From: Malacoraja senta
Lineage: Eukaryota
Assembly (NCBI GenBank): GCA_038087875.1
Contig: CM075988.1
Location: forward strand, 7,690,001-7,754,000
Length of the DNA: 64,000 nt
Direction: 5' to 3'
Below the pieces are notes generated by a model. That model was given only the letters and a program-made list of their open reading frames with translations, ran no database searches and was not told the origin of the DNA. The position numbers were made by a program, and so were the translations under genes. Shown here piece by piece: positions 25,453 to 53,280 of the stretch (position 1 is its first letter; each line of letters begins with the position of its first letter).

Positions 25453-25480
25453 CTGATGAAGGGTCTTGACCCGAAACGTC
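25453..25480 (+). ncRNA. Minimal hammerhead-ribozyme-like core (PLE type)
   Basis: CTGATGA-A-GGGTC-TT-GACCC-GAAA-CGTC; stem I is weak. Confidence 0.55.
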
Positions 25481-25522
25481 TCCTATTCCTTTTCTCCTGA
25501 GATGCTGCCAAACCCACTGAGT

Positions 25523-25663
25523 TCCCAATTTGGAAAAGTGTGTAAGAAGGAACTGCAGATGCTGCTTTACACGGAAGGTAGACACAAGATGCGGAATTTT
25601 GTGTCTGTCTTCGGTGTAAAGCAGCATCTGGAGTTCCTTCTTACACACTTTTCCAAATTGGGA
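25523..25663. repeat. 141-bp foldback hairpin built from the tail of the same repeat family
   Basis: tcccaatttggaaaagtgtgtaagaaggaact...agttccttcttacacacttttccaaattggga. Confidence 0.9.
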
Positions 25664-25974
25664 CAGGTTGCTGAGCATTCCTATTTTGGAAGGTCTCTCT
25701 CTGGCTGCCACCTTTCACTGTTGCTTTATGTCAGTGGCTTCCTTAGCCCCTCGTGTCCACATCTCCTCCCCTTGGTGTCATCTTCTTCAGCTTAGATATC
25801 CAGTGAAACTCAGTGTGGACTCAGGTGTGTCGCAGGTCCCTTGTTGCACAATGACTTCCAATAGTAGTTGGTCCCAGTGCATGTTAGAGGTCCACATTAT
25901 ACACAGAAAATGATGCAAATGATCATTGGGTCAGGCAGCGTGTGTGTGGAGAGAGAGACGGAGTTATGTTTCAT

Positions 25975-26288
25975 GTTTAGTTTTGTTTAGTTTAAAGATT
26001 TAGTGTGGAAACAGGCCCTTTGGCCCACCAAATCCACACCGACCTACATTCACCTAAACACTACTTTTATCCTACACCCTGGGGACAATTTACAGAAGCC
26101 AATTAACCTACAGACCTGTACGTCTCTAGCGTGTGGGAGGAAAACAGAGCATCCAGAGAAAACCCACGCGGTCACAGGGTCACAGGGAGAACGTACAAAC
26201 TCGGTACAGACAGCACCTGTAGTCAAGATTGAACCCGGGTCTCTGGCGCTGTGAGGCAGCAGCTTTACCGCTGCGCCACTGTGTCGCC
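25975..26288 (-). mobile_element. tRNA-derived SINE (HE1/V-SINE-like)
   Basis: Same family. Confidence 0.85.
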
Positions 26289-26659
26289 ATGTGTCAACTT
26301 GTGATGGGCGGTCCTGGACCCAACACAATAACAGGTTTTCTCTCTTCTCAGATGCTGCCTGACCCACTGAGTGCTTCCACCATTTTCAGTTTTCACTTCA
26401 GTTAAATTAGTTCGAGTAGATACATTTGATGGAGAGGAATATGTGTGATAAACCTTTATAACCAAAATTATGTTTGCAATAGGAATCCTGGGGTATCATG
26501 CAAGAACTATCTTCAGTTTTTGAATCTTCCACTTCTTGCTATGTACTGAGCAAGAGCATCATGTCCAAGGGGCTGTGTCCCACATGAACCCTCTTACACA
26601 AGGAACTCTGTGGCATGAATGAGAAGCCTGGTTAATCTGTTGTGTTTTTATCTATAGCA

Positions 26660-27568
26660 TCATCATCAAATCTGAAGCAGGCCACACAGGTTGATACTGT
26701 GGTTGGGAAGGCCTATGGGATGCTGCTTTTTGTTAGGCAGTCCATTCGGTACAAGAGCAGAGAGATTATGCTCCAACTCTTTAAACATTGGCCAGATGGA
26801 GCACAATGTGACCAAAATGACATGGTAGCACTGGAGAGGAGGCAATGCAGGATCTCACCTGGGATGGAGCAGTTCGAGGGGAGACAGGCGAGGTTAGGTC
26901 CGCTCTCCCTGGAATGGACGTGGTTAAGAGGGGATGCGATGAGGTATATAATGTTAGGAAGTGACGGCGCAGTGGTAGGGTTGCTGCCTTACAGCGCCAG
27001 CGACCTGGGTTCCTTCCTGATGACGGGTACCGACTGTACAGAGATCGTACGTTCTCCCCGTGACCTGCGTGAGTTTTCTCCGAGATCGCCGGTTTCATCA
27101 CACATTCCAAAGACGTACAGGTGTGTGGGTTAATTGGCTTGATAAAATTGTAAATTGGCCCTCGTGTGTGTAGGATAGTGCTAGTGTGTGGGGATCGCTG
27201 GTCGGCACAGACTCGGTGGGCCGAAGGGCCAGTTTCCTCGCTGTATCTCTAAACTAAACTAAGCTAAAAGAGGTGCACATGGGGTAGACTGCAGGAACCT
27301 TTTTCTCCAAATGAGGGGAAGGTCGTTAAATGAGGGGAAGTAGATCTGAAGGGAGACCATTTTTACCCAGTGAGTACATGGAACACAGAGAGTGGTGGAA
27401 GCAGAGTCACTGCCAGTGTATATCTCAACATACACTTAAATTTGCTCAGCATAGAAGATTATGGCTGAAGTGCTGCAAGATGGGGTTAATACGAACGGGT
27501 CCACACTGTCAGCATGGACATGGAGGGCCGAATGGCCTATTTCAATGTCTCCAGGACTTATGACTCAT
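26660..27568 (+). mobile_element. Old CR1 fragment interrupted by a SINE (26963-27262)
   Basis: QVDTVVGKAYGMLLF..SIRYKSREIMLQL. Confidence 0.7.
26963..27262 (+). mobile_element. tRNA-derived SINE (HE1/V-SINE-like)
   Basis: Same family, inserted in a CR1. Confidence 0.85.
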
Positions 27569-29249
27569 GGAAGAGCTAGAACAGTACAAGAACAGGCCCT
27601 TTGGCCCACAATTTCCGTGCCGAACATGATTATAAGCCATCACACATCTACCTGCACACATTGCATATTCCTCGCTGTCCTGTAGATCCATATGCCTTTC
27701 CAAAAGTCAGTCTACCCCACGACAGAAGGGGGAGAAGTTGTACAGTTTGATAGCCACAGGAAGAAGCATGTCCCGTGGCGTTCTGTGCTGCATCTTGGTG
27801 GAACCAGTCTGTTGCTGAAGGTGTTCCTCGGGTTGGATTTGAAGCGAGGATGATGTTGGCCTGTGCAAGACATGATGCCGTGTGCTACCTGAATGCCCAG
27901 GGAGCTGGCACAAGTACATACAATAACACAGAGGGTGCAGATTTATCTTGTCAGAGCTCTGCGGTACATATTGAGACAAATAGACACATCAAGCACCCAC
28001 TCATTAACAATCTGCTGCCGCTCCGATTTGCCCAGTGATCAGGAGAATGAAAATAAATTAGAATGTCTTAAATTAAGCTTCTTTGTTCTTTGCGCATAAA
28101 TTCTGTCCTTGAGGATTTGTGGCGGAGGGATTTATAGCAGACAGTGGCTGTCAGTCATTTCCACAGGCTTGATACCAGGATGACTGAGCCTCGATAGAGG
28201 TCCCTGGGGAGGCTGGTATCTGTAGCAGGTGAGCGTGAGACGACCAAATAAAACTTAAAAACCTGTGGAGATTTAAGAGCTGCAAGTACAAAGGAATGTA
28301 GAATGGGGTTAGTTGAGTGTGAAGAGCCCAATTTAATTCACACTGAAGCAGGGATTAAGAATTTATGGCTTTTGAAAGAGCTGATAATGAACCAAGCAAC
28401 CTTATCCTTGTCACTCCCTTGAGAAACAAATTGACTGTTTAATAAAATGGGATTGAGATCAAAATCCAGAAAGAGTTCCCTAGGGAAGGAAATGGGAGGG
28501 GGAAGGAGAGAAGCGTTTCCCTTGAGTCAGGTAACACAACAGCTCTCCCTCCCATTGCCCACCAAATCGTCTGTACTGAGTGCCTGTTCTGTCAGACAAG
28601 CTATTTGCTGACTGATAGTGTGTCACCTCCAATGGCCCCTGGGAGCAGGAACCTGGTTTTAGAGGAAACAGGGGGCGAGTGGTGTTTAAAAGCAGAGCAG
28701 ATTCTCTGCTCTTATAGACTGGAAACGTCACCCATTCCATATCTGCAGAGGCGCTGCCTGTCCCGCTGAGTTACTCCAGCATTTTGTGCCTATCTTCAGT
28801 GTAAACCAGCATCTGCAGCTCCTTCCTACACATGTCTCTGCTCTTACAGCAGCTTGGGATGGATTGGAGCAGAGAGGCCTTGACTTCATTGAAGCACCCA
28901 ACAATAGGGTAGGAGGCGGAGATCGACAGATTCTTGATTAGTATGGGTGTTAGGGGTTAAGGGATGAAGGCGGGAGAATGGGGTTCAGAGGGAAAGATAG
29001 ATCAGCCATGATTGAATGGAGGAGTAGACTAGATGGGCCAAATGGCCTGATTCTATTCCTGGAACTAATGAATTGTAGATGCTGGTTCATACCAGATGTA
29101 GATGAAAAGTGCTGGAGTAACACAGTGGGTCAGGCAGCATCTCTGGAGAAAAAGGATGGGTGACGTTTTGGATCAGGGCCCTACTTCAGACTGAAGGAGG
29201 GTCCCGATCAGTCGACAGTCTAAAGAAGGGTTAGCAAGACCTCATGCTC

Positions 29250-30305
29250 TTCAACTCTTCAATAACTTACACATAATCCCCTGATATTTCCATCACCTCC
29301 ATGCCATCACCAGTCGCATCCTCCCATCTCCACCCCTTCTGCAGAGACCGCTCCCTCCGCAACTCCGTGATTCACTCATCCCTTCCCACCCAAACCATCC
29401 CCTCTCCAGGTACTGTCCGCTGCAACCGCAGGAGATGTAACACCTGTCCCTATACCTCCACCCGGGCCTCCATCCAGAGACCCCAGCATTCCTTCCAGGC
29501 TGCGACAGGTTCATGCATACCTTATCTAACCTCATCTGCTGCATCCGTTGTTCCTGAGCTGACCGCCTGAACATCAGTGAGACCACGTGCCGATCCGGTG
29601 ACCGTTTCACTCAACATTTGCGCCCAGCCATCAAGACCAACTGGATCTCCCGGTTGCTAATCATTTTAACTCCCCTTCCCATTCCCACACTGACCTTTCT
29701 GTCCTGGGCCTCCTCCATTGCTAGAGTGAGGCCCCACACAAACTGGAGAACAAGCACCTCATATTTAGCTAGGGTAGCTTCAACGGTGTGAACATTGAAT
29801 TCTCCAATTGCAGGCAACCTCTAACAAACCCCCCCCCCCCCCCACCCCACCCCACCACATTCTTCTGCCCCCCCTCTTTTCAGTGCCCCACCTAGACATA
29901 CCAATCTCTCTCCTCCCCATCCCTTTTATCTCTCCCCTCTCCCTGCTCTGATTCCCCACTTCTTTATCTTCTCTCCCAATCCCTACTCCTACATTGGCCT
30001 CACGATTCACAACTCTTCAACCCCCTCGCCTGTGCCCACCTATTATCTGCTATGCTTTGTCTCCATCAGTCTGAAGAAGGGTCTCGACCCGAAACGTCAA
30101 CCCTTCCTACTCTCCAGAGATGCTGCCTGTCCCGTTGAGTTACTCCAACATTTTGTGTCATGCTTTGTCCTGCTTCTAGTCTTCCATCTTTCTTTTCCCC
30201 CATGCAATCAGTCTGAAGAATGGTTCCGATCAAAAATGTCACCTATCCACGTTCTCCAGAGATGCTGCCTGACCCGCTGAGTTTCTCCAGCACTTTGTGT
30301 CTTTT
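29250..30305 (+). mobile_element. Penelope-like element 3' part: GIY-YIG endonuclease remnant plus terminal repeat
   Basis: CNRRRCNTCPYTS and frameshifted PVANHFNS and LE.QHLIF motifs, then a polypyrimidine tract and two hammerhead-like repeat units (30071 and about 30213). Confidence 0.85.
30071..30098 (+). ncRNA. Minimal hammerhead-ribozyme-like core (PLE type)
   Basis: CTGAAGA-A-GGGTC-TC-GACCC-GAAA-CGTC, downstream of the Penelope GIY-YIG remnant. Confidence 0.55.
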
Positions 30306-30329
30306 TGAGAGCAGGATTGTTGTTCTGGC

Positions 30330-31380
30330 ACCATTCATTCAGAGTTACAATATTTGTCCTGTGCTCTGGAATCATTAGCTGTTAATCATCCAACAATGGT
30401 GATATCATCGGGAAATTAAAAAATGTCTGGGTGTAGAGTGAGTGGTGTCGGTAACTCAGCACACAGCCCCGAGGTGTACCTGTATTGAAGAGGTGATGTT
30501 ACTGCTTTGTACTGATTGTGGTCTGCCAATGAGGAAGTCAAAGATCCAGTTTAGTTTGGTTTAGATATACAGTACAGAAACAGGCCCTTCGGCCCACCAA
30601 GTCCGCACAGTCCAGTGATCCCCATATACTAACACTGTCCTGCACACCAGGGACGTTACAATTTTTACCAAAGCCAATTAAGCTTCAAATCTGTAAGACT
30701 CCAGAGTGTGGGAGGAAACCTGAGCACCTGGGGAAAACCCACGAGGTTACAGGGAGAACGTATAAACTCTGTACAACAGCACCCATAGTCAATATCAAAC
30801 CCGGGGCTCTGGCGCTGTAAGGCAACGACTCTACCGCAGCACTACTATGCCATGCAGTTATGTGGGGAAGAGCAGAGATCTCGTTCCCTGACTTTGATCG
30901 AATCTTTGGAGTTGATTACAATGTTGAATACCAAGCTGTAGTCGATGAATAACAACCTGACTTTGTCCAAGTGGTCCAGTGCTGAGTGGAGAGCCAGCGA
31001 GATTGCATCCCCTGTGACCTATTGAAGCGGTAGGAGAATTGCAGTGGGTGCAGGTTCTTACTAAGATAGGAGCTGATGTACATCAAAACCAACTTCACAA
31101 AGCACTTCACCACCACAGATGTTAGTAGTAATTGAGGAATTACCAGTATTATTGATGTCCTTTTAAACCAGGTGGGAACCTCATACCTCAGTAATGAGAA
31201 GGTGAAGATATCCATAAATGCTCCAGCCAGTTAGTCCATGCAGGTTTTAAGAATGCGTCAAGGTACACCATCACGAGTGGACCCTTTCTGAAAGTTCACC
31301 CTCATGAAGGATCTTCTGACGTCGGCCTCTACAACTGAGAATACAATGTCATCACAGATGATGAGGGCAGGAGAAGGTTC
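30330..31380 (-). mobile_element. Rex1/Babar-like LINE RT remnant, interrupted by a SINE (30550-30852)
   Basis: VPTWFKRTSII, KCFVKLVL and LHPLQFSYRFNRS; sequence resembling GVPRGCVLS is visible on the - strand near 30455-30480. Confidence 0.75.
30549..30852 (-). mobile_element. tRNA-derived SINE (HE1/V-SINE-like)
   Basis: Same family, inserted in the Rex1-like LINE. Confidence 0.85.
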
Positions 31381-32099
31381 AGATTAGGCACATTACTGTT
31401 CAAACTGCCCGCATGCTTTCTTTCTGGTGTTCAGTCGCACTGAATTATCGGACCCCTTCCCAGATTGAGGTGTCAGTAAATGAATTGAAACCCATTTAGC
31501 TCATTAGTGTTTAAATACCGCAGGGTGCTGCGGAAGTGATAAGATTAATGGAGGGACTTTGCAAGGTGAGATTGGGCCTTAAACACTTAATGAAAGATTT
31601 TATGACTGGATGGGCTGCAGTTCAGCCCTTTAATCATTGCTGCTTTGGTTCTGACATGAATTAAAATCCTTAGATGTCTCTTCATTTATTGTTCAGAGTT
31701 ACCGTTGGTTATCTTATTTGATTGACTGCAGCTCGCAATGTGAACGGACTGCTAACAGCAACAACATAAATTGTAACATTCTGGAGGATGCATTCAATAT
31801 CGTCTCTTCCCAAAGGTCTATTGTGTAAAGGCATTGTACCAGTGGTATTAAAGTGGGCAGATCAGAAGCATTCATTCAATTACTGCGTGGTGCTACATTC
31901 ATACTACCTCATCGTTACGTTCTTGCTGTTAGATGCAATAACTGAGGAGTCTGTTTTAATTTTTAATGATCTCACCCACTCTTTAATAATCTATGTATCT
32001 GCATGCATGAGTCTCTGTGCTCTATTGAAAATCTTGCTTCTTTCCGTACTTCCAGGCCAGGCATTAACAGTTAGGTTTAGGTTTGTTTATTGTCACGTA

Positions 32100-32425
32100 A
32101 AGGTTGTCAGGTGAATGTGTTCACCTTCGCTCAGTCCAACTTGGTCGGCTTAATGTCCCGGTTGCCAAACATTTAAACTCCCCTTTCCAGTTTCTCGTTT
32201 TCACCCAACAAACAGCTAACAATGGCCTGTTTCCTTTATCATCGTCACTTTTTTGCATATCTTTTATTCATTGTTCTTTATCTCTCTACATCATCATCTA
32301 TATCTCTTGTTTCCCTTTCCCCTGACTAATCTGAAGAAGGGTCTCGACCCGAAACGTCACCCATTCCGTCTCTCCAGAGATGCTGCCTGTCCCGCTGAGT
32401 TACTCCAGCTTTTTGTGTCTATTGC
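32100..32425 (+). mobile_element. Penelope-derived fragment with terminal repeat
   Basis: ccggttgccaaacatttaaactcccct matches 29650-29680, followed by the repeat with a hammerhead core at 32331-32358. Confidence 0.7.
32331..32358 (+). ncRNA. Minimal hammerhead-ribozyme-like core (PLE type)
   Basis: CTGAAGA-A-GGGTC-TC-GACCC-GAAA-CGTC. Confidence 0.55.
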
Positions 32426-32784
32426 CATGTAAAACCAATCTCCTCTGCCTGCACATGGTCCATATCCCTCCATCTCCTACATATCAACATGCATGCCTCT
32501 CTTAAAGCCTCTTAAATGCCAATATCATATCTTCCTCCATCATTGGTTGCTGTGTTCAGAACTCCCGTGTGCCTGCTACTGAAACTAATGGTATGCAATA
32601 GAGATTCTATGATTATTCTTAAGCTTGGCACAACATGTGGGATTTCTGAGTAGTTTAATTATATCAAAGTGATATCCACTAACAAGTATAGTCTGTCCTC
32701 GGGCTATAAACGTCTGACTCATCTTACTCCTACGTACAATCCCATAACATTACTAAATTCAAAAGTTGGCTTTACATACACATG

Positions 32785-33068
32785 TTTAGTTTTTTAGTTA
32801 GAGATACAGTGCGAAAACAGGCCGTTCGGCCCACCGAGTCAGCGCCGACCAGTGATCCCCATACACTAGCACTATCCTTTACGCTAGAGTCAATATACAA
32901 TTTTAACCTACAAACCTGTACATCTTTGGAGTGTGGGAGGAAAGCGGAGCACCCATGGAAAACCCACGCAGTCACAGGGAGAACGTGCAAACTCCATACA
33001 GACAGCATTCATCATCAAGATCGAACCGGGTCTCTGGCTCTGTAAAGGGCCTGCACTACTGACCACTG
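32785..33068 (-). mobile_element. tRNA-derived SINE (HE1/V-SINE-like)
   Basis: Same family. Confidence 0.8.
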
Positions 33069-33204
33069 TGGAATAATTATGAAATGTATTCCATTTCAAT
33101 CTTTACAACAGCTGGTTGGCTAAACCGCACCAAAGAATTGGTGTATCAGTAGTGTAAGGAAGTGGGAATGCTCAGGGCACTTTGGTCAAACAAACTCCTC
33201 AAAG

Positions 33205-33408
33205 TAGTGAAGGTAGACATAAAATGCTGGAGTAACTCAACAGGACAGGCAGCATCTCTAGATAGAAGGAATGGGTGACGTTTCGGGTTGAGACCCTTCT
33301 TCAGACTTCCCGTTCCTTCCATCCAGAGATGTTGCTTGTCCCGCTGAGTTACTCCAGCATTTTGTGCCTAACTCCGGTGTAAACCAGCATCTGCAGTTCC
33401 TTCCTACA
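33205..33408. repeat. Palindromic Penelope terminal-repeat element just upstream of PKNOX2 coding exon 2
   Basis: aaaatgctggagtaactca...tgagttactccagcatttt, with a hammerhead-like core on the - strand at 33277-33304. Confidence 0.8.
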
Positions 33409-33472
33409 AAGTGGTGTATTTTTCAGAGGTGAAGAACGATTGTAAAGCTTTCTTGTATCTTCTCCTCCACAG

Positions 33473-33609
33473 ATGACAGCCACGGCGCAGCAGACTACCA
33501 AGACGCAGCCAGTGCATATTCCAGCATCCTCCGCCACTGCTACTCCAGTAGCCACTGTACCACTTGACCCTCAGGCACAGCTGGAGTCTGACAAACGAGC
33601 AGTCTACAG
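33473..33609 (+). CDS. PKNOX2: PKNOX2 second coding exon (N-terminal region leading into the MEIS/PKNOX HR1 domain)
   Basis: Acceptor ttgtatcttctcctccacAG|ATG and donor TACAG|GTATAT. Translates MTATAQQTTKTQPVHIPASSATATPVATVPLDPQAQLESDKRAVY(R), versus recalled human MTATAQPPSKAQAVHISAPSAAASTPVPSAPIDPQAQLEADKRAVYR. I did not find the next exon (HPLFPLL...) in the window. Confidence 0.95.
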
Positions 33610-33677
33610 GTATATCCCAGTTATAAAAACTTCATACAGAGTGGCTGTGATAAATACGCAAAGTGACACATGGTTAT

Positions 33678-36181: not shown

Positions 36182-36431
36182 TACTACTTTCCTCCCTCTA
36201 TCATCACAATTTGCAGATTTTCAACCCTGTCCCACACCCTTCTGCTTTTTTCTCGGGCTTTATTCCAACCATCTTCCTGTCAATAGCTGCCAATGGCCTC
36301 CCTCGCCTATGTCCATCTATTACTTGCCACGCTTTGTCCTGCCTCTCCCCACTTCTAGCTTTCTTCTCCCCCTCTTACAATCAGTCTGCAGAAGGGTCTC
36401 AATCCGAAAAACATCATCAACCCAAGTTTTT

Positions 36432-36651
36432 TGTTTTAGTTTTTAGTTTTAGTGATACAGCGCAGAAACAGCCCCTTCGGCCCACCGGGTCCAGCAATCC
36501 CTGCATATTAACACTATCCTACACACACTAGGGACAATTTTTACATTTACCAAGCCAATTAACCTACATACCTGCACGTCTTTGGAGTGTGGGAGGAAAC
36601 CGAAGATCTTGGAGAAAACCCACACAGAACATGCAAACTCCATGCAGACAG
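36432..36651 (-). mobile_element. Partial tRNA-derived SINE
   Basis: 3' two-thirds of the same family. Confidence 0.8.
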
Positions 36652-37646
36652 TTCTGTAGAGATGCTGCTTGCCTGTCTGCTGCTGAGTTACTCCAGCACT
36701 TTGTGTCCTTTTGTGTATTAACCAGCATCTGCAGTTCCATGTTTCTACAAAGTAGCTCATCGATTGATTTGGATTTCATCTTTGATAAATATCCGGATAA
36801 ATTTCACCAGTAAGATAATATGTTAGAAAGATCATCATATATTTCTTGTTAGATAGATATCCTAATGGGGTCGAGCAAAGAAGAGACCTGTGGCTTTTGG
36901 GTCCCAAATCACTGAAAGTAGCATTGTAATCTCAGTAAAAATGCGTCAAAGCATTAGATTAAAAAGTAGAGAAGTTATGTTGAACTTGTTTAGATCACAT
37001 GGTTAGATCACACTTTCACACCTGAACAGTTGATTTCTGAACAGTTGAAGATAGACACAAAAAGCTGGAGTAACTCAGTGGCACATGAAGCATCTCTGGC
37101 GAGAAGGAATGGGTGGCGTTTCGGGTCGAGACCTTTGAACAGTTGATCTCTATTGTACAAAAGATAATGAGCCACTGTAGAAATGTTTTTTTTAAATGAT
37201 TTATTCAATGACACAAGTGATTGTGTTTCTGTCAGAAAGTATTATATCTTAGTAACTAAACCGAATAGGGTGATAATAAACATATTTGAGTTTATGGACA
37301 ATTTAATAGAAGTAGATTAATTCCTCTTGAGATTAAACCAGTATCTAGGCAGGGCGGTCAGTCATATCTAAGGTACCACTTACCCTTGACTCAAAATGTT
37401 GAGCACAAAATTACGGAGTAACGCTGAGGGATTACCACACTTCTATTGATGGTTTCATTCACATGAGACCAAGCGATGTCTATCCTGAGATGAAGTTTTA
37501 AAGATTTAAAGGTACGTATCAAAGAATAACATTACAGTTGGACACCACAATTTGTCTCTCAACCAACTTATTTTATGCTGTTGCTTTGTTTTAACTTCAC
37601 TTGGTGCTCATTCATCTCTTGAGCACCTCCTCCAAAATCAGAAAAT

Positions 37647-39220: not shown

Positions 39221-40299
39221 AATTTTTTCCTCTCATTAATAATTTTTTGATTCTGCTCTGCAGAATTCTGAACCTCTTTATTCCCAGGCTTTGCTCTTTT
39301 TTGACAATATTCTAAGCTTTTTCCTTTCGATCTAATGCTCTCTAATTTATTAGCCTTTATTTTTTATTTTTCCTGCTTTTTATTATTTTTCCTGTTGTTT
39401 TTCGTGTCCTCAAGGCACACATATTAATGGTAAATTCTTTAAATCTTAGTCATTCCTCTTAAGAATAGTCTCAACCCGAAACTCTGCCCATTCCTTCTCT
39501 CCAGAAATGCTGCCTGTCCTGCTGAGTTACTTTGTGTTTATCTTCCATTCCTTTTAATATAGTTTTCCGATTGACCATAGCAAACGCGCAACTCATACCT
39601 TACTCAGATTTAAAAATCCTTATTCCAAAGTCATATTTTGCTTGAAAATGGACAAAGAGGTCCAGGTATAACTTGCTGACTTTAATGCCTTGGCATCGGA
39701 AATAATGAGTGCCAATGACAGAGAAATTTAATATGGGTCCAGGTCCAAAGGTCAAAACTGGAGTGTTACAGAAATGGTTGTTGGTTTGGAAGAGAATGCA
39801 AAATAAATGAGTGAGAAACAAAGCTTACTAGTTTTCTTGAGCAAGAATGAGGGTTTTCAAAGTGACTTGATTAAAAACGAAGTAATGTAATCTGGGACAA
39901 CGGTGGAGGAAGTGGGATAATAGGTGAATTTGGCCGGGTTTGTTTTTACTGAGGGTAGTGTAGAAAATGCCCAGGAACTCGGATTTCATGGGTCATTATT
40001 TCCGGGAGGCTAGCGATATGGAGGAAGTAGGTGGTTAGGCCAAAATCAAAGGAAGATTGAAATCCAAGAATGGAATTTTAAATTTGAGAATGTTGCTGGA
40101 TTGGGAGTAATTATATATCAGTCAGAACAGGTGTGTTGGGTGAATAATATATTGATTTCTATGGAACACAATATGTCTAAATTAGCTGCTCTTCATAGTT
40201 TGCCCAAGTTTTGCTGTTTCTCTTAATGTTATCTTTTCATGTTGTAATGTTCCTCATAGCCATTCCATTATTTGCAGTTTGATTAATTTCCTTACAGTT

Positions 40300-41865: not shown

Positions 41866-42964
41866 CATTCAGTTGTATAAATTGAGAAGACAATTTGTAG
41901 ATTGGAGACACAAGTATTTGCACATGCTGAAATCTCGAGCATAAAACCAACAGCTGGAGGAACTAAGCGGGTCAGGCAGCATCAGTGGAGAGAAATGGAT
42001 AGTCAGTATTTTGGACGGAAACCCTTCATCTGAACTGAACGAGTAGGGTCAACGTAAAGAGTTGATGGGATGGGGCAAGATCTGGCAAGTGATTTGTAGA
42101 TGCTTTACCTCAGAATTCAACAGCATCTTCTTCCTAGATGAAGGCTGATGTAAAGTCCTTATTTAATACCCCAGTCATAGAGTTTAGTTTATTGTCACGT
42201 GTACTGAGCTACAGTTTAAAGCTTCACGGTCATTCTCCCTACTTTCATTCAGACATACAGGCAGACATTCTCTCCAGCTCCATGAATAGATTTGTTCTTT
42301 GGACTCCAATTGTCTTCTCAACTTTTCATCCTGACCTGTTCACGTGACTATAGAATATTTTGGGATTTGGGATCAGCCTTCCTGCATCCGTAGACTTGGG
42401 AAGTGCCGCCAAGTTCCCACATGACATAGGATGTACATTCCAGGGAGTTGGGCTGCGCTATTCCTGCTGTGCTTCTATTTATTCGATTAACTTGACCAAC
42501 AGGAAAAAAAAACTTAAAATACCATTACTGTTTCACTTACCCCAAAAGAAATGTATTTAATTCACCAGCTCCTATTTTAATAGAAATGCTTGTTTGATCT
42601 CACCAGGCCTCTGTTTCCCACACATTGTAAATTCGCCAGGCTTCCTTTAAAAGCCCCATTAATCTCTTGGTTCTTATTTCCTCTTTATCAATTTACTTAT
42701 CATTGTTTGATGATTTTTTAAAAACCCGTTTTGATCCCCAGATTACAATGTTTCTTTTTTAGGGTAACATTGTAAGCTTTTAATTTTCAATGCTGAAGAT
42801 CTCTCATTAGCCATGATCGTATCAAATGTCCTGTGGAATTTTTTGTTCCAAGCAAATGTGATTCTTTGAAAATAAAAACTTTGCTTTTCAAGTTAGCCAT
42901 CACTCATCTACCGTCATATCTTCCAGTCTAATTTTCCAACCTACCTTTGGGAACGAGATCCTAA

Positions 42965-43305
42965 TGGGCATGTCCCACTTACGCGACTTTTTCGGGAACT
43001 GCCGGCAACCGTCATAGGTCGTTACATGTCAGCGAAAATGTTCAACATGTTGAAAATCCAGCGGCAACCAGAACAAGGTACGACTCTTTGGGCGACTACT
43101 CATGACCATACAGGCTTCACCCCGCAACATGTCGCCAGGATGTCGCCTGTACGGTCGTGAGTAGTTTCCTCAGTCGCCCAAAGAGTCGTAGCGTCTTTCT
43201 GGTCGCCGCTGGATTTCCAATATGTTGAACATTTTCGGCGACCTGCAATGACCTATGACGGGTGCCGGCAGTCGCCGAAAAAGTCGCCAAAGTGGGACAG
43301 GCCTA
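42965..43305. mobile_element. PIF/Harbinger-type foldback MITE with TAA target-site duplication
   Basis: Termini tgggcatgtcccact/agtgggacaggccta; palindromic over almost its whole length; TAA at 42962-42964 and 43306-43308. Confidence 0.9.
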
Positions 43306-43420
43306 TAATACTTCCTTTAATTGGACTGATAAAATTTTCAGTTCACTTTAATTCTATCCTAATTCTCAAGTCAAAGGTCCTTCCTGTGTTTTTATCTCAT
43401 CCTTTTATCAGCTTTTAAAA

Positions 43421-44363
43421 CATGGGGACTGGGCAATCTGAACCCGAGCACCGTTGTAAGCGGCCGAAGGAGCGCAACCCTCTGGGGGGGGGGGGGGGGG
43501 GGAGTGGGAGGAGATAAAATCGTTCGTTGTCATGCACACGTGTCATCAGCCCGCCAGGGAATGTGTGTCCCCTCCCCCATGTTTTAAAAGCGATTTACTA
43601 TGGCTACACCTCCGCTCCACCCGACCCACAGCCTGTCACAGTGCGGCAGCATGGGGGAGATGAAGCGGAGGGCGGCCATGGCCGTGGGAGAGTGGGGGCT
43701 GTCCCGAGGGTTGCTCTCCTTCGGCTGCTTACAACTTGATGCTTGGGTTCAGGTTGCCCAGTCACCTATGGCTTGTGTGGTAAAATGACCAACACATACC
43801 CTTCTCCACTGGCGGGAGGTTGGGGGTCATTTTCCCACACAAGCCATAGGTGACTGGGCAATCTGAACCCAAGCACCAAGTTGTAAGCGGCCGAAGGTGC
43901 GCATCCCTCGGGACAGCCCCCACTCTCCCACGGCCACCCTCCGCGGGCTGTGGGTCGGGTGGAGTGGAGGTGTGGGACAATGTTCATCCCTCCACAGTGA
44001 TGTGATGGACGTGGGGGTCTGGACCAATCGCTGACAAGTCCCGCAAGAAACCAAGAACCAAGAACCAACGTCATGTCCGTTATTTGACTTTTCTGTTGAG
44101 CGGCATTCGGTTCATTGGCTTGTAGGCGACGCCGCCTTTTGGGTAGGTGGCGTTTCAGCAGAGCGGACATTCGGTGAATTTGCTTTTAGGCGACGCAGCC
44201 TTTCGGTTAGTTGGTTTTATAGGCGTCCCGCCTTTTCGGTTAATTTGCATTTAGGCGTCCCACCCTTTCGGTTAGTTGGCGTTTCGGCTTTGTTTCCATT
44301 CGGTTATTTGGCTTCCACTTCTTTGCTTCGGCTTCTCGTCCATCGGCGCCATGTCCGGGTACC
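43421..44363. mobile_element. Unclassified GC-rich repeat with internal inverted arms and short subterminal repeats (probable DNA-transposon derivative)
   Basis: About 43607-43790 is inverted relative to about 43824-43973. A third partial copy lies at 43427-43482, and ggcg...ccttt.cggtt units repeat across 44120-44290. Confidence 0.55.
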
Positions 44364-45262: not shown

Positions 45263-45421
45263 GTTTAGTTTAGTTTAGAGCTACAACGCGGAAACAGGCC
45301 CTTCGGCCCACCGAGTCCGACCAGCGATATCCCCACACGTTAACGCTACCCAACACACACTAGGGACAATTTCCACTTATACCAAGCCAATTAACCTACA
45401 AACCTGTACGTCCTTAGAGTG
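45263..45421 (-). mobile_element. Partial tRNA-derived SINE (3' half)
   Basis: (tttag)n tail and core. Confidence 0.8.
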
Positions 45422-46299
45422 CACAGTTTTACAGTTAGTTTTACAGCTCTTCCAGATATTTGTTTCATTCATCGTTGAAGCTAATGGAAAGTAATATTGG
45501 GCAGTAAGTAAAGCTGGTGTTCTCCTTTAACCCAGCGGGCCACTGTTAGTTTGGTTAAAATTATTCCTGATCACCTGGTCCTTTTAACATAAACAAGGGT
45601 GTTAAAAGGGTTTCAATGGAGGGAAACGTTGTATGTTAATGTCCCTCAACAGGTAGTTCTGAAGGTTTGGATCTTGTTCAATGTCAACTCTTTATAATCA
45701 GTGACTCAAGCCGCAGTCTGTTGTGGCTTCAGTGAAATCATGTATGGCATTGTACCAAGATCTGATTTTTTAATAATATAAATCCAAAAATGTAATCCCA
45801 AAGACATGTGGGTTAGAGTCATCGTCATAGAGTCATACGGCATGGAAACAGGCTCTTCGGCCCAACTTGCTCATGTCGACAAGGATGCCCCATGTACATT
45901 AGTCTCACCTGCCTATAGAGTCATACAGCATGGAAAAGGCTATTGTTGCTAGGTTATCTTGCCCCCTGTATGTAGAAGAGTTGTGGAATCTTGAGGTGGG
46001 AGTAGTTGATGGGAATAGGGTAGAAGAGTAGGATTAGTGTCAAGTGGTATTAATAGTAAACATAGATTTACTGGGCCAAAGGCCTGTGCTGTATCTCTCT
46101 TTGACTCTAAAAGCTGTTTGTCATGATCTTTTTCATATCAATTACAGGAATCTGGATTTAGGATGGAGACCATGCTCTGTCAAAACTGCATGAGTGTAAA
46201 TGAAGCAATCTTGGGTCATCTAATTTCTTGAGAGTCGGACTCCATGGCATTAGGCTGTCCAGATGGGTCAATGAATTATCTTTAAATAAGTGGTGGAAA

Positions 46300-47070
46300 T
46301 CAATTCAAGTGCTGGAAATAATCAGCAGGTCAGATTGCACATATGGGACAAGAAAGAGTTCATGGTTCATGTCAAAGACCCTTTGTCCTAGGGAGAAACT
46401 TGTTAAATTGTAGGGAAGATGAAGGAGGGAGGGATCATAAGATCATAAGTTGATAAGCGATAGGAGCAGAATTAGGCCATTCGACCCATCAAGTCAACTC
46501 CGTAATTCAATCATGGCTGATCTATCTCTCCCTCTTAACCCTTCCTGCCTTACCCATAACCTCTGACACCCATATGTCTCTGATAGGGTATAACCGGGGT
46601 GACCACAGGAGTAAGCAATAAATAGGTTCACCGATCAATGGGTGAATGGGAGCAGTTAGAGAGGGAAAACATAGACAAAAGAATGATGGTTGCTAAATGC
46701 AAAGTGTGAATTAATGCCTGACAGATCAGACCCAACACACCCTCCACTCCTAGAGAGAGAAAAAAGAAAGTGTATGTGGAGGTGGAGGTGGTAGAAGGTG
46801 CAAGCAGCCGAGTCAATACCACGGATGCACAGGCAGAAAAATCACAATAACTGAAGTTTATAGAATTCAATATTAAGCCCAGAATGTTGTAGCGTCACGA
46901 GGATGTTCTGTTCCTCAAGCTAGTATTGATGCTCTTTGGAACAATACAGGAGGCTGCAGACTGAGAGGTCGGAGTGGGGAATGAGTGTGGGATGTGATCG
47001 GAGATTATTAAAGTGGCGGGGATCAGGAAGCTAAGGGATTCCCCATGGACTGAACGCAGGTAGTCTGCAA
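46300..47070 (-). mobile_element. Penelope-like element, 3' piece (continues at 52690-53280)
   Basis: Reverse complement encodes the GIY-YIG C-terminal region (FADYLRSV..., tgaattc end motif) followed by a degenerate terminal repeat. Confidence 0.7.
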
Positions 47071-47773
47071 AGTTCAAGTTCAAGTTCACATTGATTGCCA
47101 CATGCACCAATTGTAGCACAGTGGAATTTGACTTACCATGCAGCCATACAAACAAAAGAGCACAATACACAATAGAATATAACATGAACATCCACCACAG
47201 TGGAATAGTAAGATTAAATGAGAACTTACCAGTTTGAAGTTTGATCTTTATTTTATGAGGAGTTACGTTGGTGATTACGTGAAGAAGCCCGTCAGGGCGC
47301 ATGCGCGTCAATCTTCAAAGCAGCGGTATGAAATCACAGACAAAACCATAATTGAAGTAACATATTAAGATGATCAACATGAGAACTACCATTATGACCT
47401 TTTTTCTATGAGAGAGGGTTGGGCGTGGCAGGCACGTAATCACCAACATAACTCCTCATAAAATAAAGATCAAACTTCAAACTGGTAAGTTCTCGTTTAA
47501 TCTTACTATTTTACTTCGGAGTCACGTGAGTGACTACGTGAAGATTTTAAAGCTCTGTGATTTTTATGCCGCAGATCAAAATCCCGGCTTCTCACTGCAT
47601 CGATTGACTGAGTATCATCAATAATGCTGTAAACATGACATTGCATATCATGCAAAAACAAAACAGTTTTATTTTTGGTCATAAAACAAGCAATAAACCC
47701 TCTTAATGTAGGGCAACAAACGAAACAGAATGAAACAGTATTGAAAACAGACTTTAAACAATAGCAACAGCAC

Positions 47774-48384
47774 TCAATATTGAGTTAGCAAACAGCCCTC
47801 CATCGCAAACGGCCGATGGTAGTATTGCTGAAACACAAGTTCATTTTTCCAACCTGCGGCTTTTAATATATGGTCGATGGGAACGTCCATCGCCCTGGCC
47901 GCGGATGTTGCTACTGCGCTAGTGGAATGAGATGTAAACACATAAATGTTAATTCCTGCCTGAACCAACTCTTGCTTTAACCACCTTGAGATAGTCTGAA
48001 CTGCCACTCTTTTATGTTGGCTTATTGTAACTGACAAATAATCCTGTTTCTTCTTGTCTTAAAGCCCTTGTGGCTTCAATGTAATGTAACAAATGTGTCC
48101 TTACACATAAACATGGAGCTGTAGGATATGCTGAGAACACAATCTTAAAACCTGTCACACCTGGCCTGCTTTGTTTGAGCAGGTCAGAAATATAAAACAG
48201 AATATTCTCTGTATTCACTTCCATTCTCTCGAACTGAAGTTTTTTGGAAAGTCTGCACTCTCTGTACTGACACCAATGCCATTAGCATAGCCAATTTCAT
48301 GGTTAATTTTAACAAAGTTATAGCCGTGACAGGGACCCAATGACGAAGTATGTTACGAACAACGCTTACCTCGCAGATTACCAT
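47774..48384 (-). pseudogene. DIRS tyrosine recombinase remnant (split over three frames)
   Basis: Motifs KLAMLMALVSVQRVQ, LLKQSRPG, LCVRTHLLHYIEAT, TISRWLKQEL, FTSHSTSAVATS and AAGWKNELVFQQYY. Confidence 0.9.
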
Positions 48385-48859
48385 ATACCTAGGCTTAGGC
48401 GGTTTGGAATTAGATTCCTTTCATCAACCTAGATATGAGAGGGTGAGAACCTATACTTTGTGTCCGTGTACCTATTACAAGATATGCGGACAAAGCACTT
48501 CTAGCTGTATTGATAGCAGTATAGCTAAGACCTTCATCATAATAAAGTGTAGATAAACTCTAACACATTTTCAATAACTACAGTATCATATTGAATATTC
48601 TTTTGAACACAATATTGTTCCTTTTTTTTTTTTTTATTTTTTTTTTTCATAAGTCATATACTGTTTTTTGAGTACTCTTTCTCCAGACTGCAGCGAGTAT
48701 ATACACCGTTGGCCTAGAAAGTCCTCGACCAATGTAAGGCATTCTTGAAACCTGCAAACTAACAGATCCATACCGTCACATAACGGATGAACTTAATGCG
48801 TTACTGGATGCTCCAGCAAATTCCTACTGTTTGGAATCAGCAAAAAGAGGTTGGATTGC

Positions 48860-49050
48860 TATCTGTAACATCAAAGGGAACCATGGTTGAATCAGGCAAT
48901 TTGGTATCACCAAAACCCCTGAAGCGGCATCCTGCTTGATTTTCTCAAACACCGACCTATGAGGCAGAATGGTGGGAAAATGTACACAAACATATCATCC
49001 CAATTTAGTGAAAAAGCATCAATTGCCACTGCCCCTGGATCTGGTGCCTA
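48860..49050 (-). pseudogene. DIRS Dam-like methyltransferase domain remnant
   Basis: Manual translation of the - strand gives PDPGAVAIDAFSLNWDDMFVYIFPPFCL...QPWFPLM, the DAF..W..Y.FPPF signature of the DIRS MT domain. Confidence 0.8.
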
Positions 49051-49335
49051 TGAAACATATTTTGGCCTTCCATATAGAAGTACTATGTTCTTGAACACAT
49101 CCTGGTTCCACATCCACTCTGTGTTATGATGGAATTTTCGTGAGCTGCCATCTGGTACTACATTAAGTTTCCCTGGCAGATAGATAGCTCCAATCCAAAT
49201 CTCTCTATCCCTACTCCAGGTCCCATTGTATTTGCCAACCTGTCACATGATAACAATTTGATTCCACCCATGTGATTCATATCAGCAACTGCTGCAGTGT
49301 TGTCTATTTTGCACTGCACATGCAAACTAGTTTAG

Positions 49336-50360
49336 TTAGTGCCATAAGCCTTGAGTCCATAAAATACTCTTGGTTAATTCCCCATGTATGCAGAAGCAAT
49401 GTTCATCTGTCTCCACCGCTGGATCTTGTATCAGTAGCACCCTACCGAAGTGCTCTGACATCTGTCTGCAAATCATGGAAGCTTGGTCCAATAACACTTT
49501 GGAACTACTAGTGGACACATGCTGAATCCACCATTGTACATCAGCAACAGCCTCTATTGATAGAAGCATAGGTCTATTATAATGACCCCAATGTATCCTC
49601 AATGCTTGTTCCTTTGACCTTTGTAATTGTAGATAATAAAGTGTCCATATTGAACTGCTGGAAATGCTGGCAGCCATTACCACAGCAGTCTTGTCACCTG
49701 GCTAATTGAAGGCTGTGTGTTAGCAATTAACTTGATATAGCTCTTAATTAGCTGTACCCTTTTTTGCCTGGGCAAGGTCACAATGATATTGATTAAGTCC
49801 ATTGTGAACCCAACTAGTCAATTTGTGTCACAGGTATAAATTTAGATTCCTCAGAATAGCTTATAAAGCCCAATTAAAAATTGGTTTTTACCAACTGCCA
49901 CTGATGCTTCAGCTGTTTCCTTTGATTGTGCTACAATCAAGATATTATCTAGCTAAGCCATGAGAACATGACCTTGACTTCTCTTCATGCCTAGAATAAG
50001 TTTTAACAACTTTGTAATCCCTCTGGGAGCTGAAGACAAACCATTAGGCAGTGGATTGTATTGGCATAATTCTATCCTGCAAATGAACAGACACTGAATC
50101 CGCATCTTTAAGATCTCCTTCACAAACGTTTCCATCTTAAAATGTCTATACCGTACAAAAGGGTTAAGCCTATTCAGGTCTGTATAATTCTGCATCCCCC
50201 CATCCTTTTTTGGTCTGGGAAAGATATTGGACACAAACTGATGGCTTTGGTAAACTGCCTTAGCAATTACACCTTTATTACATAAGCTTGCAAGTTCCAG
50301 CTGAACTTCCAATTGTTCAGTGATACTGAAGTCAAACTCCTTTTTTGGAACATGTTGCAT
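49336..50360 (-). pseudogene. DIRS reverse transcriptase / RNase H remnants (frameshifted)
   Basis: Motifs FVSNIFPRPKKDGG, DLNRLNPFVRYRHFKMET, LPNGLSSAPR and ADVQWW. Confidence 0.88.
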
Positions 50361-50532
50361 GGGTAAATCAGAATTTGCATTTAAGCTTTATTCGATGCCC
50401 TTGAATAACCTTCAGTATAAACATATCTGAGGTAAACATTTAATTGTATCACATTAGATCTGTCTACATGAGAACCAGACCCTCTTACCTCCTTACCACC
50501 TGGCATTCTTCCCCGGCCTCGAGCTGGATATC

Positions 50533-51255
50533 TCACCTCCGTGGCGGTGCTACAGCCGAACGCCAACTGCGCTGCATCGTAGCTGGACTCGTCCCTTGCC
50601 CGGACCAGTCTACTCCCTTATAGGGATACTTCCGCTTTGGTGAATATGTGGCTGCCGTCTTAGCCTCCTCCTCCAGCTCCTTCACCTGCTGTGCGAAATC
50701 CTCGCCAAACAGCTGTGCCGGTTGCACTGTGCCAGGCTGGCAGAGTGAAGCATATTTAGCATTGATGGTTGGTCTAATCGCAGTCTTGCGGAGGCAGTTG
50801 ATCTCAAAGTGGGCACTCCACAATAGCGCCTTTTGTTGTAATTTGTCATTGCCTCTCCATCTACCATCCTGGCAAAGCTCGTTATACCAGATGCCAGCAA
50901 CTTTAAAAATATGCTGGAGCTTCACATGCTCCTGGGCTTTCATTAGTATGCCCATCTTGCCCCAATTCTTCCTGTTCCCAACAGGAACTTTTAACAGTCC
51001 ACAGTTGATTGGGGCTTCATACTTCGTTACTGTCTCATCCATTGTCAGCTCCTGTAGCTGATGTGAGACTTGGTAATTTATGCTGGTGGCAAGTTCCTCA
51101 CCCAGAGGCTCACCAGCGTCCGACGACATGGCAAACCGTGCTGCACACGGTGTCAGCTCTGGCAGCTGCCTGCCCTCCCTTTGGAAGTCGTCAGACTCAG
51201 GGTCAGAGCGTAGCTGCCCTTCTGCACTCACCTCTTGCAAAGAGGGTGCTTTCAA
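50533..51255 (-). pseudogene. DIRS gag-like ORF1 remnant
   Basis: 240-aa ORF upstream of RT containing ...EINCLRKTAIRPTINAKYASLC...LFGEDFAQQVKEL, which resembles DIRS ORF1. Confidence 0.7.
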
Positions 51256-51495
51256 GCAGGCCTCTACTAGGCACTGCCGGCGGAGCCGTCCCCACGGCTT
51301 CCCGCCTGCACAACTCCTCCTGGAGTATGGCTTTATGAAGCAGGCCTCTCCAAGGCACTGCCAGCGGAGCCTTCCCTAAGGCTTCCCGCCTGCACAACTC
51401 CTCCTGGAGTTGTGGCTTTATGAGGCAGACCTCTCCTAGGCACTGCCAGTGGAGCCTTCCCTATGGCTTCCCTCCTGTATTACTCCTCCTGGAGC
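51254..51495. repeat. About 3 tandem copies of an 84-85 bp unit inside the DIRS 5' region
   Basis: Units start at about 51254, 51338 and 51423 (aagcaggcctct...ggcactgcc...ggcttccc...actcctcctggag). Confidence 0.9.
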
Positions 51496-52689
51496 GTCTC
51501 TGTGGAGCAGCCCCTGTATGAGCTGCTCCTTTTGGATAACCGCTGGGGAACGGTATCCTGTCCCCGAAGGGACTCTCGTGGCCCGACTCTACGGAGTCTA
51601 TAGCCCTGACAGACTTGGCGTATGCCGACCGCCCGACTGGCGGTGGCTGTGTACCCGGCTGGGCACTTTGCCAAGTCTGTCGCCGCACCGCTATCGGCTT
51701 GCGACTCCCCCGAGGTGACAGGCTGCCTTTCAGAGACTGCGTCCCGCAGCTCTCTCTCTCCTTGTCCGCAGCAGCCTGCACCTTTTACTTGTTCCTGCAT
51801 ATGAGGGAAAAAACACACAGAAACAATTTATTTACTTTTTCCTAACTCCTCCAAAGTCTCCCCGACTATGGTGGAGCTGTATTTACTCACGTTGCAGCAG
51901 GACGTCCGTGCTCCTGCTGCCGTTGTCGCCAATGCGTCCGACGTAATGACGCGCATGCGCCCTGACGGGCTTCTTCACGTAGTCACTCACGTGACTCCGA
52001 AGTAAAATCAACATTCTTCACTGTGGTGGAAGGCAATAACGTTTAGTCAGTCCTCCTCCTTTGTTCATCCGTGGCGGGGCCATGAACCATCCGCAGTCGT
52101 CGCTACGGATGGCCCGATGTACAGGCACTCTTGTCGGGATGCTCGAAACTTCAACGTCGGGACGGACGGACACTCCACGGCTTGGAGGTCCCGAATTGGC
52201 CGCTTCCTACCGGAGACCGGGGCTTCACGATGTTATAGGCCGCAGGCCGGCGGTCGGGACTCTTAGAGTCCACACTGCACCCGTGGCTAGAAGCTTCGCA
52301 GACTGCGGCTTCAGTATGTTATAGGCCGCAGGCAGGAGGTCGGAGCACTTCTTCTAGTGACCCCCGGCAAGGGATCGCCCGGCTCCGCGATGGAAAGTCT
52401 GCGCTGCACCCGCTGCTGAAGCTCTGGACCCGACTCTGGGAAAGGCCGCACCAATCCAAGTTATTAGGCCGCGAGGGAGGGCGAAATGCAACTAGGAGAA
52501 AAAGTTGCATTCCACCGAGGTAAGTGACTAAAAAACAGTTTCCCCCAATTCCCGCCCCCACCCCCACCACACTGAAACACACTTAAACACACTTTTAGAC
52601 ATACTAAAAACAAAAACAAAGTGGAAAGAACGAACAGCTGCTGGCGAGGCTGCCGGCTCGTGGCGCCATCCGTTTATTCAACAAAATGC

Positions 52690-53280
52690 ATTGCGTTCAA
52701 CAAATCTGCGTTTGGGTTCCCAAATGCCAAGGAGACCACATTGTGAACAGTGAACGCAATGCATTATGTTGAATAATGTCTAAATGAATCGCTGCTTCAC
52801 CTGGGAAGACTCTCCAGGTCCCTAAGGGCGAAAGGACAAGTATTGCATCGCCTGTATTTGCCAGGCAAAGTGTTACCAGAAGGGAAGAGGATTGGTTTGT
52901 GGAAATGGACGAGGGAGTCATGAAGGGAACGATCACTGCAAAATGCTGAAAGGGAAGCAGATAAGAAGATGTCCGTTCGTGGAATCTCTTTGACGGTGGA
53001 GAAAAATGTGGAGAATGATCTGTTGAAAGTGAAGGCTAGTGGGATTGGAAGATGAGGACCAGTAGAACTCTATCTTGTTCTGTCCTACACGAGAGGGAGT
53101 GAGAGGAGAGGAAGTGGACGAGATGCCTTGTAGACAATAGTAGCGGGGAAGCCCAAGGTTCAGGAAGAAGGAAGACAAATCAGAGATATTGAAGTATGTG
53201 CTGGAGAACTCAGCGTGTCCAGTAACATCTCTGGAGAAAAGAAATAGGTGACGTTTCGGGTCGTGACCCTTCATCAGAGT
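52690..53280 (-). mobile_element. Penelope-like element, upstream piece with hammerhead-like repeat
   Basis: Reverse complement resembles the C.RCS.CGL..GE...R GIY-YIG region and upstream PLE ORF; hammerhead core at 53250-53277. Confidence 0.7.
53250..53277 (-). ncRNA. Minimal hammerhead-ribozyme-like core (PLE type)
   Basis: - strand reads CTGATGA-A-GGGTC-AC-GACCC-GAAA-CGTC. Confidence 0.55.

Follow-up and report, generated by a model that had tools for sequence, protein, structure and literature searches.

A 64,000-nt stretch of the genome of the skate Malacoraja senta (GenBank assembly GCA_038087875.1, contig CM075988.1, positions 7,690,001 to 7,754,000; hereafter the window, numbered from its first letter) includes part of the gene PKNOX2, and is densely populated by a repeat that carries a hammerhead ribozyme motif. 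The motif is real, and is the ordinary tail end of a Penelope-like element (PLE), present as dozens of short, decaying intron copies. Very probably these are 5'-truncated, mostly dead terminal repeats (a pseudo-long terminal repeat, pLTR, with an optional tail) of an autonomous PLE of Neptune type. Their decay is neutral, and cleavage of the pre-mRNA by them is very unlikely. An earlier, sequence-only reading of this DNA had proposed a retrozyme-like, non-autonomous family, the sense copies of which could in principle cleave the PKNOX2 pre-mRNA.

The Hammerhead Motif and Its Copies

In a pattern scan of the window, the motif matched exactly at 25453, 30071 and 32331 on the plus strand and at 53250-53277 on the minus strand; there was also a match with one mismatch at 33277-33304 (-), and matches with three mismatches at 17011 and 59797 (+), giving seven matches at up to three mismatches versus none in 100 shuffled sequences. 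These agree with the four copies that the sequence-only reading had called intact and the three it had called nearly intact (at about 17010, 33277-33304 and about 59798), and the central loop varies (TT, TC, AC) as it had described. A profile search found 37 pieces of the repeat at E ≤ 0.05, including the 13 window copies from which the profile was built, versus one in the reversed window. All 19 positions previously listed, 12 of them decayed copies, lie inside profile hits and are pieces of one repeat. Grouped by eye, the 37 pieces represent about 27 insertions, or roughly one per 2.4 kb, so that the dense spread stands, at a higher density than the one copy per 3-4 kb then estimated. Head-to-head inverted pairs, target-site duplications and the optional tail had been missed.

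The copies carry the core CUGANGA...GAAA...UH and match the anatomy of minimal type I hammerheads, as had been recognised: an extra base after A9, the G10.1-C11.1 pair, an ACGU palindrome (15.2-16.2) and a GUC triplet. By established RNA geometry, helix II is better read as four base pairs with a CNNG tetraloop than as five pairs with a 2-nt loop. The CChMVd comparison made in the sequence-only reading agrees with the title of a study on an additional nucleotide in the core of a viroid hammerhead. Pattern scans of metagenome contigs and of viral contigs gave no matches to the motif in either set. In the contigs of one sequencing run (X1), single-copy bins have a depth of 45-56, and depth reaches 3.4e7 at position 32368 and 1.9e6 at position 32265; this depth is not a copy number, and hints at a copy order of 1e5-1e6.

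Continuity with PLE Remnants

The Penelope origin given in the sequence-only reading is borne out, as the motif is continuous with PLE endonuclease ends. The most extensive link is at 30071, upstream of which lies the broken 3' part of a PLE open reading frame (ORF; 29275-29817) that is spread over three broken reading frames with frameshifts and stops, and has the zinc-finger motif CNRRRCNTC. The first piece, with the zinc finger, matched 43 proteins in an unindexed protein search, and the last endonuclease piece had no matches in a word-index protein search. When 24 of the matched proteins were scanned, GIY-YIG was detected at E ≤ 0.01 in 12 (above the Pfam cut-off in three), and one homologue (P0148) showed weak RVT_1 and weak GIY-YIG hits together. 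Aligned back to the remnant, the homologues are collinear with its linker, zinc finger and endonuclease (best tblastn E ~3e-24); Pfam assigned no family to any of the three remnant pieces themselves. Judged by its CX4CX2C finger and CCHH GIY-YIG motif, rather than by a tree, the remnant looks Neptune-type. Neptune elements are characterised by a CX2-5CxxC linker followed by a C-terminal CCHH GIY-YIG, an arrangement that Penelope and Poseidon lack (PMC8557442). Further PLE remnants occur at 32122-32189 (+), 53021-52687 (-), 47036-46863 (-) and 8856-8698 (-); the copy at 32331 also ends an endonuclease remnant, and the copy at 53277 precedes an ORF remnant.

The hammerhead at 30071 had been said to follow the endonuclease remnant directly, which is not the case: the two are separated by a 253-nt sequence that is 77% pyrimidine. 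A pyrimidine tract (72-85%) and CAG-T likewise precede the core in four of five sense copies checked. The spacer at 29818-30070 looks like a PLE intron with its 3' splice site; in Drosophila virilis Penelope, an intron ends at the 2-bp helix I (PMC4209133). Among the joints listed for the assembled contigs of four sequencing runs (one unlabelled and three guessed to be RNA, the latter without coverage of the PKNOX2 exon), there was no splice joint across the spacer, which is evidence neither way.

Insertion Anatomy and a Possible Mechanism

Target-site duplications of 10-18 bp accompany 8 of 25 units at p ≤ 0.017 (0.4 expected, relative to 292 random pairs), the 25 including alternative boundaries for two loci. 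There are five two-armed head-to-head pairs (16912-17108, 16747-17655, 24114-25647, 33208-33411 and 57111-57310), plus one with a short arm (29191). A rare variant is common to both arms in all six inverted pairs compared, one of which is a local tail duplication (25539-25647), versus 72 of 389 other pairs, and the arms therefore come from one molecule or were homogenised later. Two inverted junctions centre on CAG-T-CTG, a natural micro-palindrome, and other junctions differ; a single palindromic family resembling miniature inverted-repeat transposable elements (MITEs) was rejected on the grounds that junctions vary between pairs. The 3' ends form two clusters about 35 nt apart (model columns 165-177 and 197-208), and the long tail is found on exactly one arm in four of the five two-armed pairs.

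The 5' ends, as read by eye, lie inside the hammerhead in 17 of 34 arms, with 12 of these in its first 11 columns (the first third), where the start density is 0.075 per nt versus 0.006 per nt downstream. Only three of the 34 arms begin within 5 nt past the cut site. The stop rate is higher in the hammerhead than downstream (p 0.0004, or 0.006 with one arm per insertion), and is not in significant excess over the 60 nt upstream (p 0.27, or 0.47 with one arm per insertion). Ends at the 5' edge of the hammerhead, not at the cut site, agree with the use of uncut RNA as template, as in the anole element (PMC11167929).

A mechanism can be suggested in which the PLE protein would nick DNA and start reverse transcription at either of two sites in the tail region, about 35 nt apart, as indicated by the two clusters of 3' ends; nicking and two initiation sites, which define the tail, have been shown for an anole PLE (PMC11167929). 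Reverse transcription would mostly run for no more than 70-135 nt, with the hammerhead's 5' edge as the commonest stopping point, and would frequently fold back to produce a head-to-head inverted arm, as the variants shared by arms and the CAG-T-CTG junction suggest. Integration would leave the 10-18 bp duplication detected in 8 of 25 units. The hammerhead would owe its multiplication to its place in the first-copied part of the element, and would be relevant, if at all, only in the RNA of the parent element, probably with the help of the element's protein. The copies are a natural data set on PLE mechanism, and their 5' ends at the hammerhead edge, CAG-T-CTG fold-back and two reverse-transcription starts fit the single in vitro study (PMC11167929).

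The retrozyme-like, non-autonomous family of the sequence-only reading is not upheld by this anatomy: tandem arrays are absent (the unit matches none of the window's 14 tandem-repeat rows), 5' ends and junctions vary, and several copies keep endonuclease or upstream PLE sequence, which is expected of truncated copies of an autonomous element. The only direct neighbour pair is 30071/30213, in which the second core is broken.

A Possible Short Module Copied in Trans

The best surviving alternative, itself improbable, is that the hammerhead and tail, about 100-135 nt together, form a non-autonomous family of their own, short RNAs that start at the 5' edge of the hammerhead, from solo or tandem masters, being copied in trans by PLE protein. 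It would account for the concentration of 5' ends in the first third of the hammerhead and for the great excess of short copies over endonuclease-bearing ones, both in the window and in X1 depth (3.4e7 versus 1.9e6), and an X1 contig with a tail-to-hammerhead joint (33397/30067) has the arrangement that a head-to-tail unit would have. However, starts are not fixed, ranging over some 30 nt and further; the stop rate in the hammerhead shows no significant excess over the 60 nt upstream (p 0.27-0.47); the window has no tandem array of the unit; and steep 5' truncation is usual for PLEs (PMC8557442). The pile-up of 5' ends would mark either a short independent template, which we think unlikely, or the point at which reverse transcription of the full element tends to stop or fold back.

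A more far-reaching version, equally doubtful, is that the last 100-135 nt of a skate Neptune-type PLE are now a self-standing partner resembling a short interspersed element (SINE), transcribed from the 5' edge of the hammerhead, with a tail stem-loop bound by PLE protein, at 1e5-1e6 sites. If true, it would be among the largest ribozyme-motif families in a vertebrate, and intact intronic copies might switch on with PLE protein present. Folding predictions suggest a stem-loop of 19 pairs in the downstream module, only one of which shows a two-sided change. The X1 joint is on a high-depth contig, has four letters between tail (33397) and hammerhead start (30067), and may be a head-to-tail unit elsewhere in that genome. 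An ORF starting in the hammerhead is not supported, as no frame of the majority module is free of stops.

Decay of the Hammerhead Core

The copies, very probably truncated from an autonomous PLE and mostly dead, decay neutrally, with a core no more conserved than the flanking repeat. In 15 copies that span the whole motif, each compared with the majority, mismatches number 19/164 in the core versus 131/970 in the downstream module (p 0.62), and 14/149 versus 85/842 when CpG and subfamily columns are removed (p 0.88). Covariation in helices I and II was not detected among these 15 decayed copies of one family, a two-sided change being present in 1 of 101 cells and 237 of 500 shuffles scoring as high.

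PKNOX2 and the Proposed Cleavage of Its Pre-mRNA

The first coding exon of PKNOX2 is on the plus strand (Table 1), and the host transcript is therefore on that strand. An assembly gap (run of N) lies shortly upstream of it, at ~18315-18517. The second coding exon shares 93-96% identity with most other shark and ray PKNOX2 entries, and no PKNOX2 exon beyond it was found in the window. The intronic setting claimed for the repeat is correct, and is certain only for copies downstream of 19055, the first coding exon starting at 18969. In the coding introns, 11 single insertions are in sense and 8 in antisense orientation (p 0.65), which, on small numbers, gives no sign of selection against sense copies.

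It is very improbable that intact sense copies dimerise, or are folded by PLE protein, and cut the PKNOX2 pre-mRNA after GUC with effects on host transcripts. Three sense copies do have every core and helix II base, copies 30071 and 30213, which are 142 nt apart, could formally make one active site, and the anole PLE hammerhead is active once PLE protein is added (PMC11167929). However, the intact sense copies have contiguous helix I pairs numbering 0, 1 and 1, with no more than two in any copy (the sequence-only reading had itself cautioned that helix I was about 2 bp) and no more than three in mixed pairs. In predicted folds, a rival of helix II is a hairpin formed between the purine-rich core and bases past the cut site. 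A forced active cis dimer on 30040-30310 is predicted at +19.5 kcal/mol (fraction ~1e-14), trans dimers are predicted to lie 16-20 kcal/mol above the monomer folds, and antisense copies 0.8-1.3 kb away would offer duplexes of -69 to -120 kcal/mol net. Extra core conservation and depletion of sense copies are both lacking. Two of these findings in the window, that helix I is not extendable beyond 2 bp and that the core has no extra conservation, had been set beforehand as refuting ones. In published work, minimal hammerheads were inactive as monomers and weakly active as dimers (PMC4209133), eight of nine Xenopus retrozyme dimers did not cleave (bioRxiv 10.64898/2026.07.22.740005), and the anole PLE hammerhead needs the element's protein in order to cleave, is dispensable for insertion, and gave no RNA-seq reads at its cut site (PMC11167929). 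On these predictions, cleavage of PKNOX2 pre-mRNA by the intronic copies is very unlikely. Sense copies also bring a polypyrimidine tract and CAG into PKNOX2 introns at 19660-19700, 30030-30070 and 30170-30212; this seems a possible cryptic splice acceptor, and a likelier host effect than cleavage.

An Rfam scan of the window at E ≤ 5 gave five hits, none of them to hammerhead models, the two best being microRNA models on the head-to-head hairpins; presumably, the Rfam hammerhead models require helices that the minimal variant lacks. A chance resemblance in some unrelated SINE or MITE would agree with this silence and with the lack of covariation among copies, but is extremely unlikely, given that all four non-descriptor features of PLE minimal hammerheads are matched or testable here (PMC4209133) and that the motif forms a physical continuation of PLE endonuclease ends.

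Several observations weigh against truncated, neutrally decaying ends of an autonomous PLE. Neither a PLE reverse transcriptase nor a full-length element was found in the window, and the autonomous parent is therefore inferred only from endonuclease-side remnants. There is no significant duplication in 17 of the 25 units, several boundaries were set after the repeat had been seen by eye, five of the eight duplications were first seen in this way, and the 5' ends depend on reading by eye. All of the 15 copies have kept the extra A after A9, and four fully intact copies are seen versus 2.2 expected from their own divergence (P 0.15), a surplus that subfamily structure may explain. The intact cores at 25453 and 53277 sit in diverged copies (tail divergence 22% and 15%). 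The folding energies are nearest-neighbour values that ignore tertiary contacts and proteins, misfold the majority sequence too, and cannot prove inactivity. Lastly, an unrestricted split of core changes by strand gives 5/87 for sense versus 14/77 for antisense copies (p 0.015). A sense-strand excess of intact cores was nevertheless rejected, as the counts are 4/82 versus 7/60 (p 0.20) in the 12 copies with homology running past the 5' end of the core, copies truncated inside the core being left out.

Comparison with Known Systems

Judged by every structural feature that can be tested in sequence, the repeat is made of truncated ends of endonuclease-positive PLEs. It shares with Neptune-clade elements of this kind 5' truncation, partial tandems, a head-to-head inverted truncated copy and duplications (PMC8557442 and PMC3846280), as well as a 30-40 bp tail on one end and the CX2-5CxxC linker and C-terminal CCHH GIY-YIG (PMC8557442). 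The palindrome at the inverted junction is also shared, and has been interpreted as self-priming (PMC3846280). Unlike in those elements, no full-length ORF or reverse transcriptase is seen in the window, and the copies are extremely short and dense, at about one per 2.4 kb.

With the minimal type I hammerheads of metazoan PLEs, the motif has in common the extra base at 9/10.1, G10.1-C11.1, the palindromic 15.2-16.2 and absence of helix III, and the copies are similarly mostly solitary with opposite-strand pairs; thousands of such solitary motifs and pairs are known in fish, coelacanth and frog (PMC4209133). The D. virilis variant also has a 2-bp helix I beside a splice-acceptor-like site, whereas its 2-nt insertion in helix III is absent here, and helix II is 4-5 bp here versus 7-8 in Schistosoma and 6 in D. 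virilis (PMC4209133). Neither the text of that paper nor its one searchable supplementary table holds a minimal hammerhead from a cartilaginous fish. In the Poseidon element PAc of Anolis carolinensis, the hammerhead likewise lies a short way upstream of two 3' end points separated by about 35 nt, and copies include the uncut hammerhead; PAc differs in clade and in having an ORF that starts at stem II (PMC11167929), whereas here each of the three frames of the majority module is interrupted by a stop.

Non-LTR retrozymes resemble the repeat in their type I core, PLE kinship and dispersed monomers, and consist of tandem 150-450 bp repeats with canonical active hammerheads and circular RNA (PMC7229834; bioRxiv 10.64898/2026.07.22.740005). 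The skate repeat is not a non-LTR retrozyme, because retrozymes are defined by tandem units with complete canonical hammerheads, whereas here there is no array, and the hammerhead is minimal with a helix I of at most 2 bp in place of the canonical 6-bp helix I and loop-loop contacts. Retrozymes have been reported in one chondrichthyan (bioRxiv 10.64898/2026.07.22.740005). No paper describing a hammerhead-bearing PLE family in skates was found in the literature, repeat databases and some supplements being outside the search. The repeat is a PLE footprint of textbook type, new for its lineage in the literature found and useful for repeat annotation; it would gain greater importance only if the short module were independent, or if PLE protein activated the intronic copies.

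Insertions and Neighbouring Elements

Table 1. Copies of the hammerhead-bearing repeat, PLE remnants and PKNOX2 exons in the window.
Feature	Position	Strand	Details
Copy beginning at helix II	3472..3539	+	Profile; upstream of PKNOX2 first coding exon
Copy without hammerhead	6605..6690	-	Begins near cut site; duplication 11/13
Endonuclease end and pyrimidine spacer	8698..8856	-	LINE-like insertion cuts off before any hammerhead
Tail-side fragment without hammerhead	12176..12234	-	Profile
Further tail-side fragment, weak	15431-15466	+	Profile
Older head-to-head pair	16747..17655	both	16747-16777, 17475-17543 (-), 17549-17655 (+); duplication 11/13; split by ~700-bp inverted-repeat element
Near-perfect head-to-head palindrome, two hammerhead modules	16912..17108	both	Centre CAG-T-CTG; rare variant common to arms; inside inverted-repeat element
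PKNOX2 first coding exon (matched part)	18969..19040	+	tblastn 24/24 identical to skate PKNOX2 P0002
Decayed copy	19660..19796	+	Upstream pyrimidine tract and CAG-T; profile
Further tail-side fragment	19999-20048	-	Profile
Copy beginning at helix II	23649..23726	+	Profile
Composite	24107..25661	both	Minus arm 24114-24219, CR1-like fragment, plus arm with intact core 25453; exact 14-bp direct repeat at ends
Further tail-side fragment	26342-26386	+	Profile
Copy beginning inside helix II, long tail	28718..28832	+	Exact 12-bp duplication
Inverted copy, long tail	29067..29210	-	Head-to-head with short plus arm (29191); junction centre CAG-T-CTG
Broken 3' part of apparent Neptune-type PLE ORF	29275..29817	+	Linker, CX4CX2C zinc finger, GIY-YIG with CCHH residues
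Pyrimidine-rich spacer	29818..30070	+	253 nt; 77% pyrimidine vs 50% for window; ends CAG-T
Intact minimal hammerhead core and downstream module	30071..30159	+	Short 3' end; pattern, profile
Second, decayed copy in partial tandem	30160..30309	+	G12 lost, helix II damaged
Internally deleted PLE end	32102..32419	+	Endonuclease scrap 32122-32189, pyrimidine spacer, intact core 32331, short end; duplication 15/18
Head-to-head pair	33208..33411	both	Minus arm: hammerhead 33277-33304; plus arm: starts just past cut site, long tail; duplication 9/10
PKNOX2 second coding exon	33473..33609	+	AG/GT bounded; 98% identical to Leucoraja and Amblyraja PKNOX2
One copy, interrupted	36311..36752	+	Other repeat at 36410-36650; profile
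Copy beginning at helix II	37046..37136	-	Duplication 15/16
Decayed copy	39463..39544	+	Duplication 11/12
Old decayed copy, long tail	41913..42054	-	Profile
Much older PLE end	46307..47036	-	Endonuclease scrap 47036-46863, spacer, barely recognisable module 46388-46307
Intact core 53250-53277, then decayed PLE ORF fragment 53021-52687	52687..53290	-	Partial-tandem layout
Head-to-head pair	57111..57310	both	Long tail on minus arm only; 2-nt deletion common to arms
Two decayed tandem copies	57507..57729	-	57682-57729 and 57507-57644; profile
Copy with 7-nt deletion across cleavage site	59796..59915	+	Long tail; pattern
Further tail-side fragment	59972-60012	+	Profile

At 24107-25661, two PLE arms are enclosed by an exact 14-bp direct repeat and separated by about 1.2 kb of DNA that is CR1-like and SINE-like; this DNA either reflects the insertion of a long interspersed element (LINE) into the centre of a head-to-head pair, or was carried between PLE ends. 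The right arm includes a local inverted duplication of the tail together with its flank (25523-25663). A GC-rich element of about 700 bp at 16778-17476, with terminal inverted repeats of ~67 bp and a TAA duplication, produces a three-level nesting, as it splits one PLE pair and itself contains the palindrome at 16912-17108. We take this element to be Harbinger-like, and the CR1 and SINE labels used in the window are likewise our assumptions. Long inverted repeats unrelated to the hammerhead module are found at 42964-43306 and 43679-43936 (arms of 110 and 112 nt), and the ends of the former resemble the element at 16778. A young LINE fragment at 57708-59780 has an open frame of 548 codons with an RVT_1 hit (E 5.7e-35), and ends with an 8-bp microsatellite that immediately precedes the copy at 59796. 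Decayed ORFs at 49336-51494 (-), reverse-transcriptase-like and gag-like by eye, are possibly a DIRS-type remnant, and an 85-bp tandem repeat occupies 51254-51494.

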